From Thermodesulfobacteriota bacterium (lineage in GTDB: Bacteria; Desulfobacterota; SM23-61): a DNA stretch of 64,000 bases. The stretch is taken from assembly GCA_049699975.1 (NCBI GenBank), contig JBNAWB010000001.1:24534-88533 (forward strand). Reading direction: 5' to 3'. Shown here one piece after another: positions 645 through 64,000 of this stretch. The position numbers and the translations under genes were made by a program. Position 1 is the first letter of the stretch, and every line of letters starts with the position of its first letter. The notes below the pieces were generated by a model. The model was not told where the DNA came from, did not search any database, and saw only the letters and a list, made by a program, of their open reading frames with translations.

Positions 645-1199
645 ATGGATGAACCCAAGAAAAGAATAAATTCGCAAAATGATTTAGAGAATAGTTCTCT
701 TGTTTCTGAAAATAAGGAAGCTACGCCGCTCGGTCCTCTTAAAAATAATAAAAAAAAGTTCTTAAAATTGGGATTAATTTTAATATTTTTAATTGCCAGT
801 GGAGTTGGGTTGGCTTTTTATTTTCAGCTAATAGAAATGCCTTCCCCAGCTAAAAATAAAGAAGCAAAAGCCAACGAGCCGGCTAAAGAAATTTCCGTAG
901 GACCCATGATTAAACTTAGTCCGCTTATTATAAATTTGAATGAAACAGAAGGTAGACATTTCCTTAAAGTCACTTTAGTTTTAGAAGCAGAGCAAGCTAA
1001 ATTTTTAGAGGAAATCCAAGCCAAAACTTCGCAAATTACCAATATGATTATAATCCATCTGAGTGATAAGAAACTTGCAGATATTCATCAGCGGGATGCT
1101 AAAGAAAATTTAAAAAAAGAACTTTTAGAAAAAATGTCTAACCTAATAGGCGGAGGGAAGGTCAAGCAAATTTATTGGGAAGAATTCATATACCAATAA
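645..1199 (+). CDS. fliL: Flagellar basal body-associated protein FliL (paralog 1)
   Basis: There is a single N-terminal TM segment, and the C-terminal FliL-like region (LIINLNETEGRHFLKVTLVLE...IYWEEFIYQ) resembles the second fliL at 13814. An AGGGT Shine-Dalgarno precedes ATG 645; the longer frame from 576 is less likely. Confidence 0.7.
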   Translation: MDEPKKRINSQNDLENSSLVSENKEATPLGPLKNNKKKFLKLGLILIFLIASGVGLAFYFQLIEMPSPAKNKEAKANEPAKEISVGPMIKLSPLIINLNETEGRHFLKVTLVLEAEQAKFLEEIQAKTSQITNMIIIHLSDKKLADIHQRDAKENLKKELLEKMSNLIGGGKVKQIYWEEFIYQ

Positions 1200-1361
1200 T
1201 AAGAGGAAAAATTTGCCTATCCTTATTTGTTGATTTTAAAAAGTCCGCTAAATAACCGCTAATGATCGTGGTCATGAATTTTTAAAAATTGATAATAATT
1301 AAAGCAATTTAAGATAAAAAATTAAAAAATAAAGGCGGTTAAAAAAAGCATTAAGTTTTTA

Positions 1362-2230: not shown

Positions 2231-3331
2231 ATGAATGGTCTGGAAACGGTTAATAAGGATGTAGAAGAAAGAAGTAGAGAAAAGAAGAGTTCTATCCCAA
2301 AATTATTTGCTGAAGCCTTACCAGAGGCCAATGGCCGCCAAATATTTAAAGAATTTTTAGCCGCCTTTTCCGGTTCTCCACCCCTTATTACTCAAAACAA
2401 GAAGATGCTGGAAATTCTTGCTTTATGTCAAAAAATTGCCTCCAGCAAAGCCACCGTTCTTCTGCAAGGCGAAAGCGGGACCGGAAAAGAACTTTTAGCT
2501 AAATATATCCATTCCTTAAGTCCGCGGAATAAAGGACCTTTTGTAGCGGTAAATTGTGCTTCTTTACCTGAGTCTTTATTAGAAAGTGAATTATTTGGCC
2601 ATGAGAAAGGTGCATTCACCGGAGCCATTGCCAAAAAAATAGGCAAGTTTGAGTTAGCTCATGGCGGAACCATCCTTTTGGATGAGATTAGTGAGATGAA
2701 TACTTTTCTCCAAGCCAAGATTTTAAGGGTGCTCCAAGAAAGCGAAGTGGACCGTATTGGTGGCCATCACCCTATTCCCATCGATATTCGAGTCATTGCC
2801 ACAACTAACCGGCATTTAGAGACCAGTGTGCAAAAAGGAGAATTTCGGGAAGATTTATATTATCGTTTGAATGTAGTTAATATAAAAATACCGCCCTTAA
2901 GAGAACGTCCCGAAGATGTTCCCCTCTTGGCCGATCATTATCTAAAATTTTACGCCCAAAATTATGGGCGGGCCGTGGAAAATATATCTCCCGCAGCCTT
3001 AGCTTGGCTCCAAAATCAGGAGTGGAAAGGTAATATAAGAGAACTTAAAAATAAAATAGAGTATGCGGTGCTGGTCACAAATAAGAACTTTTTAGATGTA
3101 GATGATTTTGCAGAAAAAGAAGGGACGCTGATTGAACCCAACCTCTTTCCCGCCCATGATTCTTTGTGCTTAAAAGATATGGAAAGGAGGTTAATTTTAA
3201 GAGCACTGGAGGCCACTAAAGGCAACCGCACGCAAGCTGCTAAAGTATTGGGGATCAGTATTAGAACATTAAGAAATAAGCTCAATGAATATAAAAAAGG
3301 TAATAGAGACTTAAAAATTTTTGAGGATTAA
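2231..3331 (+). CDS. Sigma-54-dependent transcriptional activator (bacterial enhancer-binding protein) lacking an N-terminal receiver/regulatory domain
   Basis: Walker A GESGTGKE, the GAFTGA sigma-54 contact motif and an R-finger region are present, followed by a C-terminal Fis-type HTH (TQAAKVLGISIRTLRNKL). Only about 55 aa precede the AAA+ core. Confidence 0.9.
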   Translation: MNGLETVNKDVEERSREKKSSIPKLFAEALPEANGRQIFKEFLAAFSGSPPLITQNKKMLEILALCQKIASSKATVLLQGESGTGKELLAKYIHSLSPRNKGPFVAVNCASLPESLLESELFGHEKGAFTGAIAKKIGKFELAHGGTILLDEISEMNTFLQAKILRVLQESEVDRIGGHHPIPIDIRVIATTNRHLETSVQKGEFREDLYYRLNVVNIKIPPLRERPEDVPLLADHYLKFYAQNYGRAVENISPAALAWLQNQEWKGNIRELKNKIEYAVLVTNKNFLDVDDFAEKEGTLIEPNLFPAHDSLCLKDMERRLILRALEATKGNRTQAAKVLGISIRTLRNKLNEYKKGNRDLKIFED

Positions 3332-11587: not shown

Positions 11588-12247
11588 ATGGGACTAACTG
11601 GAGCAGCAACTGTAAGCAATTCTAAGGCCACCATAACTCAGTCGCCAATAAAAAAGACACTTACCCAAGAAGATTTCATAAACATCTTGGTAACCCAAAT
11701 GAAGTATCAAAATCCCTTGGAACCATTAAATAATGAACAGATGGCCACGCAAATAGCCCAGATGAGTAGCGTGGATGCCTTGCAAAAAATGGAACAAACG
11801 ATGAAAAATATGGCCTCAAAATATGACTGGTTAGCTAACATGCAGGCAGCGAGTTTAGTCGGCAAAAAAGTAGAAGTTGCCGGAAGCCAACTACCTTTAT
11901 TGCCTAATCAGAGCGCGGAAGGTTTTTATCAGTTACCTCAAGCGGCTAAGGTCACGATTCAAATATACGATTCTTTAGGAAATTTAGTCCGGATTATCGA
12001 AGAGGGCCGAAAGGAGATGGGCAAGCATAAGTTTTCCTGGGATGGCCAAAATAATAAGGGCGAAAAAGTCCCTGAGGGAATCTATACCTTTGTTATATCC
12101 GCAGTTGATCAGAGAGGAAATGGAGTTGCAGTCTCTTCTTCCCTGATCGGGGAGATCAAAGAAATCGCTTATGAAAATGGCACCGTTTATTTCGTGATCG
12201 GGGGCCAAAAATATAATTTAGAAAGTATTAGGTCAATTTTCAGTTAA
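11588..12247 (+). CDS. flgD: Flagellar hook assembly/capping protein FlgD
   Basis: FlgD N-terminal motif (FINILVTQMKYQNPLEPL) and a C-terminal Ig-like/FlgD domain. Confidence 0.9.
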   Translation: MGLTGAATVSNSKATITQSPIKKTLTQEDFINILVTQMKYQNPLEPLNNEQMATQIAQMSSVDALQKMEQTMKNMASKYDWLANMQAASLVGKKVEVAGSQLPLLPNQSAEGFYQLPQAAKVTIQIYDSLGNLVRIIEEGRKEMGKHKFSWDGQNNKGEKVPEGIYTFVISAVDQRGNGVAVSSSLIGEIKEIAYENGTVYFVIGGQKYNLESIRSIFS

Positions 12248-29401: not shown

Positions 29402-29848
29402 ATGGAAAAAGGGCCGATACAAAATGTAAAAAATTTACCCAATCTCCTTTCCCCTATGGACAATTTTAATAAAGGGAAATTGGATGAAGAAAGAGCTAAA
29501 AAAGTTTGTCGAGAATTTGAATCCTTATTTTGGAAAGAAATCTTCAAATTGATGCGGAAAATGACCTGGGGAAAAGGATGGGGGAACAATAGCGAGTCAG
29601 GAAATGAAATATACCAAACCCTTTTAGAGCAAGAAGTGAGTAGAACCCTGGCTCAGAAAAAAGGATTAGGGATAGGAGAGCTAATTTATAAACAGATTAC
29701 CAATCAGCAAAAAAATAAAAGTAACCTTTCACTCTCCCCTCTTCCCAGCGGGGAGAGCCCCTTACCTTCTCCGCTCCTTAGTGGGGAGAGCCCCTCACCT
29801 TCTCCTCTCCCCATTGGGGAGAGGCAAGGTGAGGGGGAATTAAAATGA
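29402..29848 (+). CDS. flgJ: Flagellar rod-binding protein (FlgJ N-terminal domain only; no muramidase domain), with repeat-encoded C-terminal tail
   Basis: Rod-binding motif FESLFWKEIFKLMRK...GNEIYQTLLEQEVSRTLAQKKGLGIGELIY. The C-terminal 40 aa (SPLPSGESPLPSP... x3) are encoded by tandem hairpin repeats at 29732-29842. Confidence 0.75.
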   Translation: MEKGPIQNVKNLPNLLSPMDNFNKGKLDEERAKKVCREFESLFWKEIFKLMRKMTWGKGWGNNSESGNEIYQTLLEQEVSRTLAQKKGLGIGELIYKQITNQQKNKSNLSLSPLPSGESPLPSPLLSGESPSPSPLPIGERQGEGELK

Positions 29849-29897
29849 ACACTTGCTTGAGGCTTTGCCTAAAGAAATTAGGCGCGGAGAATAGGCA

Positions 29898-31843: not shown

Positions 31844-32725
31844 ATGCGCGTAGCTACCAGGACTATATACTATAACTTGGAAAAGAAACTCCTTTCCTTG
31901 GAAGAAAAACAGCAAAAGATAAATGAACAGATAGCTTCAGGAAAGATCCTCAATAAACCATCAGATAATCCGCTGGCCATGATCAATGTTCTCCACTTGA
32001 AGAAGGCATGGGCGCAGGTGCAACAATACCAGCGGAATATGGAAACGACCAAAACTTGGCTAAATTTAACAGAATCGGCGCTGCAGCAGACGGAAGAATT
32101 GATCGGCCGGGCTAAAGAAATTGCTACCCAAATGGCTAGTGATACCCAAAATGCCGCGACTAGAGCTTTGGCGGCTAAAGAAATAGATCAACTTATAGAT
32201 CAGGCAATTTCTTTGGCTAATAGCGAGTTAGGGGGAAAATATATTTTTGCAGGTTATAAGGTTAATACTGTTCCTTTTTCCAAGGTGAGCGGATCCGTTC
32301 AATATAACGGCGATACTAATACAATTCAAATTCCCATTGGCCAAGAGGAAACTTTGGCAATCAATAAAGATGGGCAGACCGCCTTTATGGAGGCTGATAT
32401 TTTTACTGTATTAGGGAGTCTCAAAACTGCGCTGGAAAATAATCAGACAGCAGAAATTCGGCAGCAGTTAGAAAATCTCCAAGAGGTCGCGGATCATTTC
32501 AATAATCAAATAGTTGATATTGGGTCCCGACTGAACCGCTTGGAAGCCAAACAAAATATTCTTAAAGACCTGGATCTTTTCTTTCAAGAGAGAATCTCAG
32601 AAGAAGAGGATGCGGATATTTCCGCTTTAGTTGTGGATTTAAAGGCGAAAGAATTGGCTTATCAGGCGGCCCTGCTCTCTTCAGCAAAAATCCATGAGTT
32701 AACTTTATTAAATTATTTGCGTTAA
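31844..32725 (+). CDS. flgL: Flagellar hook-associated protein 3 FlgL
   Basis: Flagellin-like N-terminus with the typical FlgL motifs, and appropriate size. Confidence 0.85.
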   Translation: MRVATRTIYYNLEKKLLSLEEKQQKINEQIASGKILNKPSDNPLAMINVLHLKKAWAQVQQYQRNMETTKTWLNLTESALQQTEELIGRAKEIATQMASDTQNAATRALAAKEIDQLIDQAISLANSELGGKYIFAGYKVNTVPFSKVSGSVQYNGDTNTIQIPIGQEETLAINKDGQTAFMEADIFTVLGSLKTALENNQTAEIRQQLENLQEVADHFNNQIVDIGSRLNRLEAKQNILKDLDLFFQERISEEEDADISALVVDLKAKELAYQAALLSSAKIHELTLLNYLR

Positions 32726-32728
32726 ATT

Positions 32729-32853
32729 ATTAATGAGCGCATTAAATAAATGACATATGCTGTTCTTAACCCCTTATCCTAACCCTCTCGCCAGGCATGG
32801 GGAGAGGGGAAGGTAAGGGGAATAAGTGTAAATATTTAATCGCTCCGAGTAAT
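32729..32853. mobile_element. MITE-like repeat, copy 1 (imperfect 21-bp terminal inverted repeats tattaatgagcgcattaaata / tatttaatcgctccgagtaata; internal ctctcgcc...ggggagagggg hairpin)
   Basis: Near-identical to 62075-62221 over both arms. Located between flgL and csrA. Confidence 0.7.
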
Positions 32854-32888
32854 AAATAGAGCAGTCATTTTTGCCAGGGAGGGTGAAA

Positions 32889-33110
32889 ATGCTGATTTTA
32901 ACTAGGAAGATAGGCGAATGCATCGTCATCGGGGACAAGATCAAGGTCTATGTAATAGATGTCCGCGGTAAGCAAGTGCGCTTAGGTATTGAGGCCCCGG
33001 TTGAAAATGTTATTTATCGGGAGGAGATTTTCCAGAAGGTCATAGAGGAAAACAAATTAGCCGCCGAGGCAGTTCAATACCACTTCTCGAAGATTAAAGA
33101 AAAGGAGTAA
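32889..33110 (+). CDS. csrA: Carbon storage regulator CsrA
   Basis: MLILTRKIGE.I.IGD.I.V.V..V.G.QVRLGIEAP...I.REEI, with a GGGAGGG Shine-Dalgarno. Confidence 0.9.
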   Translation: MLILTRKIGECIVIGDKIKVYVIDVRGKQVRLGIEAPVENVIYREEIFQKVIEENKLAAEAVQYHFSKIKEKE

Positions 33111-33553: not shown

Positions 33554-33582
33554 GGGAGGTCAGGCAAGTCCGCAGGGCGTGG

Positions 33583-33648
33583 CCATCTCTTTAATTTCAA
33601 TGAGTTACGAGATCGCCGCGGTCTGCATGCTCCCTCGCGATGACCTTA
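33583..33648 (+). repeat. GC-rich structured intergenic repeat, family 2, copy A
   Basis: About 85% identical to the reverse complement of 50180-50250. Contains the palindromic core gctccctcgcga. Confidence 0.6.
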
Positions 33649-33745
33649 CTACACAGTCTCAATGAAGAGAGGATTAGAGTGAGGGGATAAATTATAAGTA
33701 AGGTAATTTGGGCATGGGGTCGAGTTGTATCAAAGAAGATGAAAA

Positions 33746-50037: not shown

Positions 50038-50179
50038 GGCGAACTTAAATTGGAGAACAGCAATAAATACTAAAAAAATAATAATTTTTTTTAATGCCCA
50101 AGCTAAAAAGTGGAGAACTTCATGACGCCTCAAGAACATTTCCTCCTTACCATCTCCTCTCCTTAGGGAAACTATATTG

Positions 50180-50250
50180 TAAGGTCCTCGCGAGGGAGCG
50201 CAGGGACCGTGGCGATCTCATAACGCTTTGAAATTAAAGAGATGGTCAGG
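50180..50250 (-). repeat. GC-rich structured intergenic repeat, family 2, copy B (inverted relative to copy A)
   Basis: The reverse complement aligns to 33583-33648. It is embedded in a GC-rich island (about 50180-50340) within an AT-rich divergent intergenic region. Confidence 0.6.
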
Positions 50251-50524
50251 CTTCGCTACCTCAAGTGCGGAGTCCCTCGCCATGACGGAAAATGCGTCGC
50301 GACCCAATCTCAGTGGGCAGAGGCAGGGAAAGGGAAGTCATTGAAAATTCCAATAATAATCTCACTCTTCAGTGAGAGATTAATAATTTTTATTGCTCCA
50401 TTTAAGAAAATTAAAATTCACCCGATATTTTAACCAGACTTGGATGAAAATAAATTCTCTTCAAGAAAAGAATAAAAAGAAGAAGGAATTTTTATAAAAA
50501 ATTACCATTTAGAGGAAAGAAGGA

Positions 50525-53709: not shown

Positions 53710-54231
53710 ATGAGTCAATTAGTAACTTCAGTGAATCAAGCAATAAAAGAAATAACCAATCGCGAAGGGAAATATTTAACTTTTTCTCTCGGCGCGGAAG
53801 AGTATGGAATAGGTATTTTAAAGATTAAAGAGATTATTGGGATGCTGCCTATTACCGCGGTTCCCCGCACGCCACCTTTTGTAAAAGGAGTAATTAATTT
53901 GCGGGGAAAGGTTATTCCGGTGATTGACTTACGCGTTAAATTCGGCATGGAAGACAAAGCTTATACCGAGAAGACCTGCATCATCGTAGTTGAGATCAAA
54001 GGGAAAGATAATCCAATTCTTATGGGAATAGTAGTCGATGCTGTTTCGGAGGTTTTGAATATCAAAGCAGGGGAGATTGAAGAAACCCCTCGATTGGGGA
54101 CTAATCTCGATTTAGATTATATTTCTGGAATCGCGAAGATTAATGGTGGAGTAAAAATTTTATTGGATATTGATAAAGTATTGAACCAAGAAGGAATTAA
54201 TTTTTTAACTCAAAAATCCCATAGTGGATAA
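53710..54231 (+). CDS. cheW: Chemotaxis coupling protein CheW
   Basis: Single CheW domain of 173 aa. Confidence 0.9.
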
Positions 54232-54257: not shown

Positions 54258-55884
54258 ATGTGGGCTAAATTAAAGCTTTCCACAAAGATTTTGCTATTAG
54301 GAGTCGTTATTATATGCTGTTTCTCCTTAGTCTTTGCTTGGCTGATACCAAAAGTTAGAAGCAATATGTACGAGGCTAAGTATCAGAAAACAAAACATAT
54401 TGTTGAATCTGCCTGGGGTGTATTAGACCATTACGCCAAGCAAGCAAAGGCAAAAGTGCTTTCCGAGGAGGAAGCAAAAAGACAAGCTAAAGAAGTCATT
54501 AAGAATCTGCGTTATGACCAAGATGATTATTTCTGGATTAACGACTTAGAGCCAAGAATGGTTATGCACCCTTTTAAAAAGGAGATGGAGGGGCAGAGTT
54601 TATCAGATTATAAAGATCCTAACGGTAAAAAGTTATTTGTTGCTTTTGTAGAGGTTTGTAAGAAATCGGGTGAAGGTTTTGTGGATTATATGTGGCCCAA
54701 ACCTGGGGCCACTAAGCCCGACCCCAAAATTTCATATGTCAAATTACTCCCCGAATGGGGATGGATTATCGGTTCTGGAATTTATATTGATGATGTGGAA
54801 AAAGAAATAAATCAAATCCTTTATGTAATAATCGGCACAGTGATAGCTGTTACAATAGGGGGGCTTTTTTTGGCTTATTTAGTGGCCCGCTTTATTTCCC
54901 GATCTATTAATCGAGTTGCTCAGGGTCTAACAGAAGGTGCAGAGCAAGTGGCCTCGGCATCAGGCCAAGTTTCCTCAGCCAGTCAAATCTTGGCTGAAGG
55001 GGCATCAGAGCAAGCAGCCGGAATTCAAGAAACTTCTTCTTCCATTGAAGAAATGTCTTCTATGACGCGCAAAAATGCGGAAAATGCCAATCAAGCCAAT
55101 ATATTAGTGATGGAAACATCACGGGCTGTAGAAGAGGCCAATCAATCCATGAAAGAATTAACGCAGTCTATGAGTGAAATTTCCAGCGCCTCAGAAGAGA
55201 CAGGAAAGATTATTAAGACTATAGATGAAATTGCCTTTCAAACTAATTTATTGGCCTTGAATGCGGCGGTAGAAGCAGCTCGGGCTGGAGAAGCTGGTGC
55301 TGGTTTTGCAGTTGTGGCCGATGAGGTGCGCAATTTAGCCATGCGGGCAGCAGAAGCTGCTAAAAACACAGCTAATTTAATCGAGGGAACAGTTAAAAAG
55401 GTTCGTAATGGATCAGAAATTTTGGCGAAAACTAACTAAGTCTTTGCCAAAGGTGGCCAGCAGTTCAAAAAAGGTACAGGAGTTAGTTGGGGAAATTGCG
55501 GCCGCTTCCCAAGAACAGGCTCAGGGCATAGAACAAATTAATAAAGCAATTTCCGAGATGGATAAGGTAGTGCAAAAGAATGCGGCTTCTGCCGAAGAGT
55601 CTGCGGCGGCGGCAGAGGAGATGAATGCGCAAGCCGAAACAATGAAGGGGTTTGTATTTGAGCTTATGAATTTGATGAATGGGCAGAATGGAAATAGCCA
55701 AACGTCTTGGGAGTTGAAAAAAGTGACTCAGGGCGAAGGACCTCTTGGAAGTCAAGACCAGAAGGGTGGTAATGGAAAAAGAAAGGTGCGTTCTATAATC
55801 AGCTGCAAGAAAGGAGGGAGGCAAATAGAAGCAAAGAAACCAGAACAAATAATCCCCATGGAGGGAGATTTTAAAGAATTTTAA
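54258..55884 (+). pseudogene. Methyl-accepting chemotaxis protein (single-Cache sensor) disrupted by in-frame TAA (55437-55439) plus +1 frameshift (~55452)
   Basis: Two ORFs (54258-55439 and 55408-55884) together reconstruct a full MCP when aligned to the MCPs at 56479 and 62707. Expected ...KTNEVFAKVASSSKKV; observed KTN*VFAKGGQQ. Confidence 0.7.
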
Positions 55885-56478: not shown

Positions 56479-58086
56479 ATGAAGATTGGGCAATTAGTTA
56501 AGGACATGAAGCTTTCTAAAAAGTTGCTCATATCCCCCATGGTGGTAATAGTCTTTTTAATCCTCCTGGGCTGGGTCTCTTACCGAGGTTTAATTAGCCA
56601 AAAAGAAGCTATGGAAGATGTTTTTCAAAATCGCTTTAAGAATTATCAAATAAGTGCTGCTTTGGTGAATGATCTCGCCACTATGCATAGCAATTTATAT
56701 AAATTAATAAGTTGGGCTAATGCTAACTACGAAGAGAAAAAAATCCAAAGCCTCGGTAAAGAACAAATAAACATGTTGGAAAAAGCTGCGCGAGGAGTCA
56801 GCGAAGTGCAGTCAAAGAATGAACTCGCTCGGGAGGAAAAAGTTCTTTTGGGAACAATTGGAACTCAACTTGCGGAATATAAAAAAGTAGCCCTCTCCGC
56901 CATTGACCTAGCCACTTCAGATCTTAATATGGCTACTATGTACATGGGGAATGCTGATGATAAATACCAAGTATTATATAAAACCTTACAAGAACTTTTG
57001 GCTTTGGAAAACAAACTGAGCCAAGAAAGTTATATTTCTTCAATGGCAAGTTATTCCACAGCAGTAAGAATGTTTTTTATTATTATGGGAATTTCTTTAA
57101 TTATTTCCATAGGCATAAGCCTGCTCACTGCACGGAAAATTACTCATCCGCTTCACCAAGCCATGAAAGTTATCCATCAGATTGCTGAGGGGGATCTGAC
57201 TCGAGAACTTAAAGTAGAATCCCGGGATGAAGTCGGGGAATTAGCAAAATCTGTAGAAATGATGCGTCTCAAAATGAGCGAAGCAGTTGGCCAGTCAGTT
57301 TCCATGTCCCAGAGCCTTGCCGAAGCTGCCGCTGAGCAAGCAGCCTCCTTGGAGGAGACTTCTTCATCTTTAGAAGAGATGACTTCCATGACCAAACAGA
57401 ATGCCGGAAATGCCCATCAGGCTAATAGTTTGATGGATAATACCCAAGAAGTGATTAAGAAAGCAGATGGCTCTATGAGGCAATTAATTGCTTCTATGAG
57501 AGAAATCTCGACGGCGAGTGAGGAAACGGTAAAGATCATTAAAACTATTGATGAGATAGCTTTCCAGACGAATTTATTAGCTCTAAATGCGGCGGTAGAA
57601 GCAGCTCGGGCTGGAGAAGCTGGTGCTGGTTTTGCGGTAGTAGCTGATGAAGTACGCAACTTAGCGATGCGGGCCGCGGAAGCAGCCAAGAACACATCAG
57701 AGCTGATGGCTGATATTATGCGTAAGATTAAGAATGGAGAGAAGCTGGTTAATGTAACCGCTGAAGGATTTAGAGAACTCACAGATAGTTCTTCTAAGGT
57801 GGTTGGTTTAATTCAGGAGATTGCTGCTGCTTCCCAAGAGCAAGCCCAAGGGATTGAGCAAATAAACAAGGCGGTCACTGAGATGAATAATCTAACCCAA
57901 AAGAATGCGGCGGCCGCCGAGGAGTTGGCTTCCCTTATGGCCATATTCAAGACCAACGGTTCTGGAGGAAAAAGTACAGGAGCTATTTCTGTATCCCCAA
58001 AGGCAGATTTTATGGATCACATTTCGCCAAAAAGATTATCCGAAGACAAAGTGATCTCTCCCAACCTAACCGAAGCCCAAATTTAA
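56479..58086 (+). CDS. Methyl-accepting chemotaxis protein (4HB-type periplasmic sensor, HAMP, MA domain)
   Basis: TM1, a helical periplasmic domain, TM2, HAMP, and a conserved signalling domain ([37 protein letters not shown]). Confidence 0.9.
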
Positions 58087-60994: not shown

Positions 60995-62044
<1,050 letters not shown>

Positions 62045-62074
62045 GAAGCAAATCTGCTGGCCAGGCTAAGCGAT

Positions 62075-62221
62075 ATTAATGAGTGCATTAAATAAATGAC
62101 ATCTGCTGTTCTTAACCTCTCACCTCGGTACGAGTCGATTCCGACCTAACCTTCTCCCCACGCATGGGGAGAGGGGAGGATGAGGGGAATGATTGTAAAT
62201 ATTTAATCGCTCGGAGTAATA
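62075..62221. mobile_element. MITE-like repeat, copy 2
   Basis: Same TIRs and internal ggggagagggg hairpin as 32729-32853, with a longer internal segment. Confidence 0.7.
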
Positions 62222-62235
62222 CTTTTTCTTAGACT

Positions 62236-62640
62236 AATGAAAATTATGGGATTGAGATTTTGAAGGTTAAGGAGATTATCAGGATGGTGCCGATACGTTC
62301 CGCACACTTCTTTGTTTTTAAAAAGAGTTATCAATTTGCAGGGGAAGGTAATTCCAGTAGTTGATTTGCGGCTTAAATTTGGGATGGAAGAGGTGGAGCC
62401 TACGGAGAAGACTTGTATTGTGGCAGAGGTGAAAGGTGAAAAAGATAAGACGTTAGTGGGGATCGTGGTGGATTCCGTTTCAGAAGTTTTTGAATATTAA
62501 AGCTGGGGAGGTTGAGGAGACGCCGGCTTTTGGAGCGAAGACGGATACAGACTGTATCATGGGGATGGCCAAGATGAACGGAAATTTAAAGATCTTCTTA
62601 AATATTTATCAGATCCTCAATGAAATAAATAAAAATAATT
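62236..62640 (+). pseudogene. Decayed cheW paralog (N-terminally truncated at the MITE boundary, multiple frameshifts/stops)
   Basis: The translation matches CheW 53710 in blocks (GIEILKVKEIIRMVPI | VINLQGKVIPVVDLRLKFGMEE..EKTCIV..VKGE.D..LVGIVVDSVSEVF | KAGEVEETP), but these blocks lie in different frames. Confidence 0.7.
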
Positions 62641-62706
62641 AACAGGTCGATAAAAAGATTATAACGCCCTTCTTTAGAATTTAACGATTGAAATAAGGAG
62701 GATTTT

Positions 62707-64000
62707 ATGGTCAAAAAAATTTTTAGATTAGATACTATTAATAAGAAGTTCATGATTCCAACCTTAATGTTAGTTGTAATTTTGCTCTTGGGGTTAGGAA
62801 CGATTTTGGTTATGAACCATTATTTTTCTACAAAATCTTTAATGGAATCAAAAGCGAATTTTTTATCAACTTTCCTTAAAGAAATTAGTACCCCTTATCT
62901 CAGTAATTATGACTATCGCCCGTTAGAAGGCTTTGTTCAAGAAGCGTGTAAAGACCCCGAGATAGCTTTCGTTATTTATTACGATGATCGGAATAATCCT
63001 GTAACAACGAGCGTAAAAGAGCCAACGGATACTTCTTCTTTACTGCTTTACAGACATGAGGTAAAAAACTCTGAGGGCAGGGTTGTGGGCTCTTTTAAGA
63101 TGGGTTATAAAAAAAATGTGCTTTCAGAAATTTTGCAAGGAGGAATATTTAGAATAGGTTTGAGCATCCTGATAGCTATGGGCATAATGGCCGTAGCGCT
63201 CACATTGCTTATCCGCAATATCGGCCGATCTTTAAAAGACATTTTTAAAGGTCTAAATGAGGGAATTGATCAAGTAGCATCAGCATCTGCTCAGATTTCT
63301 TCAGCCAGCCAATCTATGGCGGAGGCAACTTCAGAACAAGCAGCGGGAATTCAAGAGACTTCTTCTTCGCTTGAAGAGATGACTTCCATGACAAAGCAAA
63401 ATGCGGAGAGCGCTAATCAGGCAAACAATTTGATGATGCAGACAAGTAAGGTTGTAGAGGAAGCAAACCAAGCAATTAAGGAATTAATTCAATCAATGAA
63501 CGAGATTTCAAAGACTTCTGAAGAGATGGCCAAGATAATCAAGACTATCGACGAGATAGCTTTTCAGACTAACCTTTTGGCTCTTAATGCAGCCGTAGAG
63601 GCGGCACGAGCTGGAGAAGCGGGGGCTGGTTTTGCCGTGGTAGCTGATGAAGTAAGAAACTTGGCTATGCGCGCTGCGGAGGCGGCAAAGAATACAGCCA
63701 GCTTAATTGAAGAGTCGGTTAAGAAAATTAAAAATGGCTCTATCATTGTTACAAAGACCAATGAAGCATTCGAGAAGGTTTCTGTTAGTTCCAAGAAAGT
63801 GGCCGAGCTCATGGCTGAAATAACAGCAGCTTCTCAAGAACAGGCCCAAGGAATTGAGCAGATTAACAAAGCAGTAGCAGAGATGGATAAAGTAGTGCAG
63901 AGGAATGCGGCTTCGGCAGAGGAGTCAGCTTCGGCAGCGGAAGAGATGAATACACAGGCTGAAACAATGAAAGGTTTTGTAGAGGAATTAATGGCTTTAG
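62707..64000 (+). CDS. Methyl-accepting chemotaxis protein, 5' portion (continues beyond window end)
   Basis: AGGAGG Shine-Dalgarno, TM, a periplasmic domain, TM, HAMP, and an MA domain highly similar to the MCPs at 54258 and 56479. There is no stop before the window edge. Confidence 0.85.

Follow-up and report, generated by a model that had tools for sequence, protein, structure and literature searches.

The two related repeats found in the 64,000-nt stretch of DNA analysed here (hereafter the window) very probably belong to a family of non-coding MITEs, which resides in an uncultured Thermodesulfobacteriota lineage and its congeners, inserts at TA, and is presumably mobilized by a transposase of the IS630/Tc1-mariner type supplied in trans. 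The original prediction of a MITE-like, non-autonomous mobile element is supported by a pair of empty and filled sites with TA duplication, and by at least 13 further distinct complete members located in unrelated intergenic contexts. The family combines small size, lack of coding function, terminal inverted repeats (TIRs), target-site duplication and dispersed copies with unrelated flanks, and these properties match the description of bacterial MITEs as elements of less than about 200 bp with TIRs, TA at the termini, duplication of the target site and transcripts that form long stem-loops (PMC2229807).

Both copies are present on the plus strand, within one base of the positions originally given for them (32729-32853 and 62075-62221). 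Copy 1 occupies 32728-32854 (127 nt including the flanking TA pairs; element proper 32730-32852, 123 nt), while copy 2 occupies 62074-62221 (148 nt; element proper 62076-62219, 144 nt). Copy 1 lies in the spacer between flgL, the coding sequence of which ends at 32725, and csrA (ATG at 32889), followed by fliW, and thus separates flgL from csrA-fliW as originally described; copy 2 is located after cheB (stop at 62044). The flanking proteins are annotated as from a Thermodesulfobacteriota MAG, and both copies were found with identical sequence in an independent assembly, GCA_049969335.1 (contigs L001 and L006).

The ends of the two copies are nearly identical, as had been noticed before, with 94% identity over the left 47 nt and 88% over the right 77 nt, and the alignment with copy 1 revealed an extra 21 nt in the left arm of copy 2. 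The TIRs of the window copies are 26-27 nt in length and imperfect, with 21-22 matching positions, for which the earlier '21-bp' is a fair description. In copy 1, the left TIR (TTAATGAGCGCATTAAATAAATGACA; 32730-32755, +), of which the end is common to all family members, pairs at 22 positions with the reverse complement of the right end, and the right TIR (TGTAAATATTTAATCGCTCCGAGTAA; 32827-32852, +) was located by end-block search, family comparison and TIR pairing; these are bordered by the left TA (32728-32729, +), represented by a single TA in ten congener empty sites, and by the right TA (32853-32854, +), assigned by the empty/filled comparison, as the two halves of the duplicated target site. 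In copy 2, the left TIR (62076-62101, +) was located by copy alignment, end-block search and TIR pairing, and the right TIR (62194-62219, +) by end-block search and TIR pairing; its left TA flank (62074-62075, +) is a presumed target-site duplication in view of the TA flanks seen in the family, and its right TA flank (62220-62221, +) was recognized by family comparison. When up to 3 mismatches are tolerated, the window still contains exactly two occurrences of each end block, against an expectation from shuffled sequence of 0.17 (18-nt block) and 0.04 (19-nt block), and a search of the window with profile HMMs made from three family size classes detected no TIR-bearing copies beyond the two.

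Between the TIRs, copy 1 carries a G/C-rich palindromic core (32770-32820, +), which is BoxC/PIT/TMECO-like but partly degenerate, as judged from its inverted repeat, motif hits and the match to E. coli BoxC under the published definition (PMC4666352), and which consists of the blocks CCCCTTATCC TAA CCCTCTCGCC AGGCAT GGGGAGAGGGG AA GGTAAGGGG. The BoxC/TMECO-like core of copy 2 (62116-62187, +), identified by the inverted repeat and motif hits, reads CCTTCTCCCC ACGCAT GGGGAGAGGGG AGGATGAGGGG and includes the 21-nt insertion specific to this copy (CTCGGTACGAGTCGATTCCGA; 62124-62144, +), which is predicted by folding to form a small GTCG...CGAC hairpin of its own. The internal hairpin claimed in the original prediction is real, being formed by the inverted repeat CCCTCTC.CC/GG.GAGAGGG. 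The folding check gave for each copy one significant long hairpin, of -51.1 kcal/mol (z = -6.6) for copy 1 and -51.9 kcal/mol (z = -4.2) for copy 2. The sole ORF touching copy 1, 56 aa on the minus strand, extends out into csrA, and the absence of coding capacity holds throughout the family, of which all members are intergenic and 123-312 nt in length.

The insertion of copy 1 was established by comparison of the flgL-csrA spacer between the window and its relatives. The FlgL homologues form a tight group at 84-94% identity, with the next tier at about 55%, and this group is herein taken as the congeners. In 10 out of 10 congener contigs (L007-L013 and L050-L052; FlgL 86-94% identical to that of the window), the spacer is 34-38 nt in length, in contrast to 163 nt in the window, and contains the empty site GCGTTAAAT-TA-AATAGAGC, or a close variant, with a single TA. 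The group with 91-94% identity (L007-L010 and L050-L052) reads ...GCGTTAA|AT-TA-AATAGAGCAGTCATTTTTGCCAGGGAGGGTGAAAATG, whereas the window reads ...GCGTTAA|AT-TA-[123 nt]-TA-AATAGAGC..., with the rest identical to this group; the filled site, 123 nt with TA on both sides, is also present in L001 and L002. Since ten empty sites with a single TA stand against TA-element-TA, and since the placement of the insertion point is ambiguous by exactly 2 bp, copy 1 is an insertion of 123 nt that duplicated a 2-bp TA target site, and for this copy the duplication is proven by the empty/filled comparison. DNA identity of the window is about 88% with the L007 group and about 80% with L011/L013, and because all of these are empty, the filled state is the derived one; copy 1 thus represents an insertion in the window lineage rather than a deletion elsewhere. 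The corresponding empty site for copy 2 could not be reconstructed, the sequence downstream of cheB being different in every related lineage, and a matching empty site is available for one insertion only, that of copy 1.

Copy 1 was inserted 4 nt past the flgL stop codon, leaving intact the last 34 nt before csrA, which include the ribosome-binding site and a leader hairpin and are identical in the 91-94% congeners, with one difference in L011/L012. The leader hairpin at 32866-32891 (CATTTTTGCCAGGGAGGGTGAAAATG), in which the csrA ribosome-binding site and start codon are predicted to be paired with a GGA in the loop, is unchanged in 9 of the 10 congener contigs and might be a site of CsrA autoregulation.

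Outside the window, a scan of JGI metagenomes with a relaxed left-end pattern yielded 20 loci from five samples; the strict pattern, requiring both window-type ends exactly, gave no match in the JGI metagenomes. From these loci we extracted 15 complete elements, 13 of them distinct, all having both ends in common and unrelated flanks. With the TA flanks included, the family sizes are 127, 136, 148, 196, 237-238 and 302-316 nt (123-312 nt without flanks). The complete elements begin with TA|TTAATG and end with TAA, and carry TA on both sides in 13 of the 15 cases, as expected for a MITE derived from IS630/Tc1-mariner, the other two having a degenerate right TA (CA, GA). TIRs of 26-27 nt with 19-22 matching positions were identified in all 15, and the end consensus is TTAATGrGnGCATwAAATAAATGACA ... 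TGTAAATATTTAATyGCTCsGAGTAA. The ends and a subterminal segment on the right-hand side are common to all size classes, which differ in their interiors, where small hairpin modules are nested: the short class, including both window copies, carries the BoxC/PIT/TMECO-type core, and in the longer classes the same ends enclose other hairpin modules. Modules resembling the insert of copy 2 (TCGGTACGA, TTCCGAC and GAGTCGAT..CGAC) were recognized by eye in L017, L019 and L021. Several metagenome loci contain two or more copies, and truncated copies were found in L020, L022, L023 and L029. All copies are intergenic, and relative to co-directional neighbour genes 10 are in the same and 4 in the opposite orientation, a difference that is not significant.

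Among the metagenome contigs, the main one that ties the family to a host organism is L033, on the same contig as the flagellar cluster of the 94% congener (L007): it carries a family member in the fliW-flgM spacer, while its own flgL-csrA site is empty. This member (L007, 11772-12100) has a good left end and a decayed right end, and is a mosaic of a left part from the mid-size class (11772-11887) and an interior of the 300-nt class (11875-12074). In the orthologous fliW-flgM spacer of the window, an unrelated repeat, referred to as E2, is present in place of the family member, and this spacer has the appearance of a hotspot for the insertion of small repeats. In L021, two family members in inverted orientation, at 1049-1286 (-) and 2687-2834 (+), bracket a histidine-kinase gene, and one of them is located inside a two-component operon, between the stop codon of the response-regulator gene, 3 nt away, and the start of the kinase gene, 9 nt away. 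A search of species-representative genomes for the 19-nt right end of the window copies gave three matches, all by chance and in unrelated organisms. Because the metagenome members differ from this 19-mer by one base (TTGCTC instead of the TCGCTC of the window), the exact-match scan of genomes is uninformative beyond the window's own lineage. Nine matches on viral contigs were all to an unrelated phage gene or due to chance.

The element inserts at TA within AT-rich intergenic DNA, duplicating that TA as observed for copy 1, and according to the mechanism that we propose, a transposase encoded elsewhere would recognize the terminal repeats and move the element by cut-and-paste. Because strict duplication of a 2-bp TA characterizes the IS630/Tc1-mariner family, the transposase is most likely a DDE enzyme of this type, an assignment based on the TA duplication; RUP with IS630-Spn1 provides a precedent in bacteria (PMC2229807). 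The search for a cognate transposase, suggested along with the original prediction, found none among the neighbours of orphan ends, the window ORF positions and the fetched loci. The ORFs adjoining orphan left ends encode ordinary metabolic or membrane proteins, and the ORF map of the window, inspected by ORF position and not by protein-family scan, contains no obvious candidate. Within the fetched loci, no inverted repeats 0.6-3.5 kb apart were found to enclose a transposase, the only such arrangement being the two MITEs around the histidine-kinase gene. No full-length partner IS with these ends was detected in about 400 kb of fetched sequence, nor was an IS with the same ends found on plasmids, where blastn against PLSDB matched the core only.

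The plasmid matches concern the G/C-rich interior (about 22-99 of the family consensus), which was hit at 607 places in 198 PLSDB records from hosts including Sinorhizobium, Rhizobium, Azospirillum, Escherichia and Enterobacter. In addition, matches to the 61-nt core were found in 5354 of 5426 complete E. coli genomes, at a median of 12 places in each. A search of the literature for the literal sequence identified this core as the BoxC/PIT/'TMECO' intrastrand-triplex motif (PMC4666352; BoxC is also listed in PMC2267715). The type A motif of E. coli is CCCTCGCCCC-TTT-GGGGAGAGGG-TTA-GGGTGAGGGG, and a total of 3610 motif copies were counted in 262 proteobacterial genomes, never associated, according to the authors, with transposons or other mobility functions (PMC4666352). 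On their minus strand, L021, L028 and L032 carry the 22-mer GGGGAGAGGGTTAGGGTGAGGG, which agrees exactly with the type A motif of E. coli, and the plus strand of L028/L032 reads CCCTCTCCCC-AAGCAT-GGGGAGAGGG-GA-GGGTGAGGG; judged from its sequence, the family core is a palindromic double BoxC. The block structure is kept in copy 2 (GGGGAGAGGGGAGGATGAGGG), and the third block is degenerate in copy 1 (GGTAAGGGG). The order expected of the triplex motif, i.e., C-rich stem, loop, G-rich stem, spacer of about 3 nt and second G-rich block, is present at the sequence level, and the second G-rich block is a potential antiparallel purine-motif third strand. A BoxC-like palindrome without MITE ends was also found at about 29770-29863, between an ORF for a flgJ-like rod-binding protein and flgN, and the C-terminus of ORF 29402-29848 runs into this palindrome; about 165 nt at this place are absent from the 94% congeners (L007) and partly present in L013. 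From this palindrome it follows that the BoxC motif is not confined to the MITE in this lineage.

BoxC/TMECO motifs have been known for about 30 years and are abundant in Proteobacteria, and we know of no mechanism for their dispersal. The location of such a motif inside a demonstrably mobile shell offers a concrete and testable model of how it can move: the MITE family could be a vehicle spreading BoxC/PIT/TMECO palindromes, the BoxC of E. coli and other Proteobacteria being cargo or relics of TA-inserting MITEs, or else the BoxC hairpin could be a module recruited repeatedly, for instance helping the ends to synapse or shaping host transcripts. This proposal is speculative and is treated as of low probability, because the motif also occurs outside the MITE and because the likeness between phyla may have arisen by structural convergence on a purine/pyrimidine motif and not by common descent. 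If it is true that MITEs spread BoxC, it would provide a dispersal route for the BoxC repeats of E. coli and Proteobacteria that have been reported as unlinked to mobile elements.

Besides the MITE family, three explanations for the two window copies were considered. Copy 1 had been proposed to act as a terminator, stability or regulatory element of the CsrA-FliW module, and in the wider form both copies might be a dedicated cis-regulatory or structured RNA (terminator, attenuator, stabiliser or CsrA-binding decoy) of the flagellar/CsrA-FliW regulon, kept at both positions for function. In agreement with this explanation, both copies are oriented as the flanking flagellar and chemotaxis genes, both fold very stably, GGA triplets are present in the G-rich arm, and, on the plus strand, several positions at which the stems of the two copies differ show compensatory changes or G-U wobbles; compensatory changes are, however, to be expected in any inverted repeat that a single transposase binds. 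The same operon lacks the element in all ten congener contigs, leaving its role as a designed or conserved feature unsupported, and family members are located beside unrelated genes in both orientations. Neither copy has a hairpin plus T-tract of an intrinsic terminator within it or at its end, the bases after the stem being AATAGAG and CTTTTTC; no sigma-70 promoter consensus was found in the element; Rfam 15 gave 0 matches at gathering thresholds across the window, and at permissive settings (E up to 10) only far-sub-threshold matches to microRNA hairpins; and no strand preference of folding stability is consistent across the family. The GGA triplets lie inside the stems of the predicted fold rather than in loops, which, together with the empty locus in congeners, is not the arrangement of a CsrA-sequestering RNA of the Csr/Rsm type. 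The regulatory explanation is largely refuted by the empty sites, and we consider it very unlikely. The element may nevertheless have an incidental effect on processing or stability of the flgL-csrA mRNA: since its ends and interior are self-complementary, any read-through transcript would be expected to form a hairpin of about -50 kcal/mol, and such an effect is plausible by analogy with the Correia and ERIC elements.

The copies might instead be palindromes of the REP/BIME or BoxC type, spread by a REP-associated tyrosine transposase, recombination or replication slippage, with the AT-rich ends merely carried along as flank. The interior is indeed a BoxC/TMECO-like palindrome, and the BoxC-like palindrome without MITE ends at about 29770-29863 also varies in presence between lineages; but the same 26-27-nt ends and TA flanks are found in family members whose interiors are wholly different, indicating that the unit of mobility is set by the ends and not by the palindrome, and the boundary of insertion lies exactly at the ends with a 2-bp duplication. 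REPs are 20-40 bp in size, lack TIRs and target duplication, and are often clustered, and the label 'REP-type', also used in the original prediction, does not fit an element of at least 123 nt with TIRs and TA duplication that occurs singly; such an origin is likewise considered very unlikely. The alternative named at the outset as the outcome that would overturn the mobile-element reading, a local or segmental duplication within the flagellar-chemotaxis cluster without mobility of its own, is in keeping with the fact that the 64-kb window contains only two copies, which belong to a single gene cluster. Its probability is negligible, as the similarity between the copies stops exactly at the TA-flanked ends, and it was ruled out by the dispersed copies, at least 13 of which, additional and distinct, were found with unrelated flanks in related metagenome contigs.

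A cheW pseudogene (about 62239-62642), 5'-truncated and spread over three frames with two inferred frameshifts, lies directly to the right of copy 2 and is a paralogue of the intact cheW at 53710-54231; contig L006 of the independent assembly has the same sequence throughout copy 2, and the only CheW called there is a fragment of 54 aa. Downstream of cheB (62044 onward, compared with L034-L038), the gene order differs in every related lineage: in relatives with 90% CheB identity an MCP gene follows directly, and in the 94% relatives a different gene follows, their contigs ending about 220 nt after cheB. Because the cheW pseudogene adjoins it and the downstream sequence differs between lineages, copy 2 marks a rearrangement junction. 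The second, unrelated intergenic repeat family of the window, E2, is represented at 33577-33673 (+), just after fliW, and at 50155-50251 (-), each 97 nt in length and 79% complementary, and reads CCATCTCTTTAATTTCAA..GAGATCGCC.CGGTC..GCTCCCTCGCGA.GACCTTAC. Both repeats appear to break assemblies, since contig L001 of another assembly ends inside E2 and contig L002, likewise of another assembly, ends inside the MITE. Three diverged direct repeats at 54993-55673, 57319-57925 and 63319-63998 (69-79% identity) are regarded as paralogous chemoreceptor genes and not as mobile repeats, because the matched regions of related contigs are annotated as MCP signalling domains.

Taken as a MITE family, the repeat is a routine addition to the bacterial catalogue, comparable to RUP, Correia and ERIC, but it represents a clean case from an uncultured Thermodesulfobacteriota lineage, as an exact empty site, TA duplication and several size classes were all documented, and what sets it apart is the core of BoxC/TMECO type; copy 1 splits the flgL-csrA junction of a conserved flagellar operon, and copy 2 adjoins a decayed cheW at a synteny break. 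Among the known systems, RUP of pneumococcus, a MITE thought to be mobilized by IS630-Spn1, is similar in its size of about 100-130 bp, non-coding nature, TIRs, insertion at TA with duplication, many intergenic copies and presumed trans-acting transposase of the IS630 type (PMC2229807). The resemblance of the RUP TIRs to a resident IS is documented, whereas no partner IS was found for the present family, which also differs in its several size classes and BoxC-type core, and of which the sequence does not appear to be related to RUP. Correia/NEMIS elements of Neisseria share TIRs of about 24-26 bp, TA termini with duplication, size variants arising from internal indels and insertion inside operons, and their transcripts form long stem-loops that were proposed as RNase III substrates affecting the neighbouring mRNAs (PMC2229807); they differ in host phylum and sequence, and neither an IHF site nor an outward promoter consensus was detected in our elements. 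ERIC/IRU of enterobacteria is likewise an intergenic, imperfect palindrome of 127 bp flanked by TA with duplication, is co-transcribed with neighbour genes and affects mRNA stability in an orientation-dependent manner (PMC2229807), but its TIRs are short (7 contiguous bp in the review table; PMC2229807) and its sequence is different, so that the equal length of 127 bp is a coincidence. With BoxC/PIT/TMECO of E. coli, the short-class interior shares the block order of C-rich block, loop, GGGGAGAGGG, spacer of 1-3 nt and GGGTGAGGG(G); in contrast to the E. coli motif, reported never to occur with mobile elements (PMC4666352), it is located here inside an element that is bounded by TIRs and duplicates TA.
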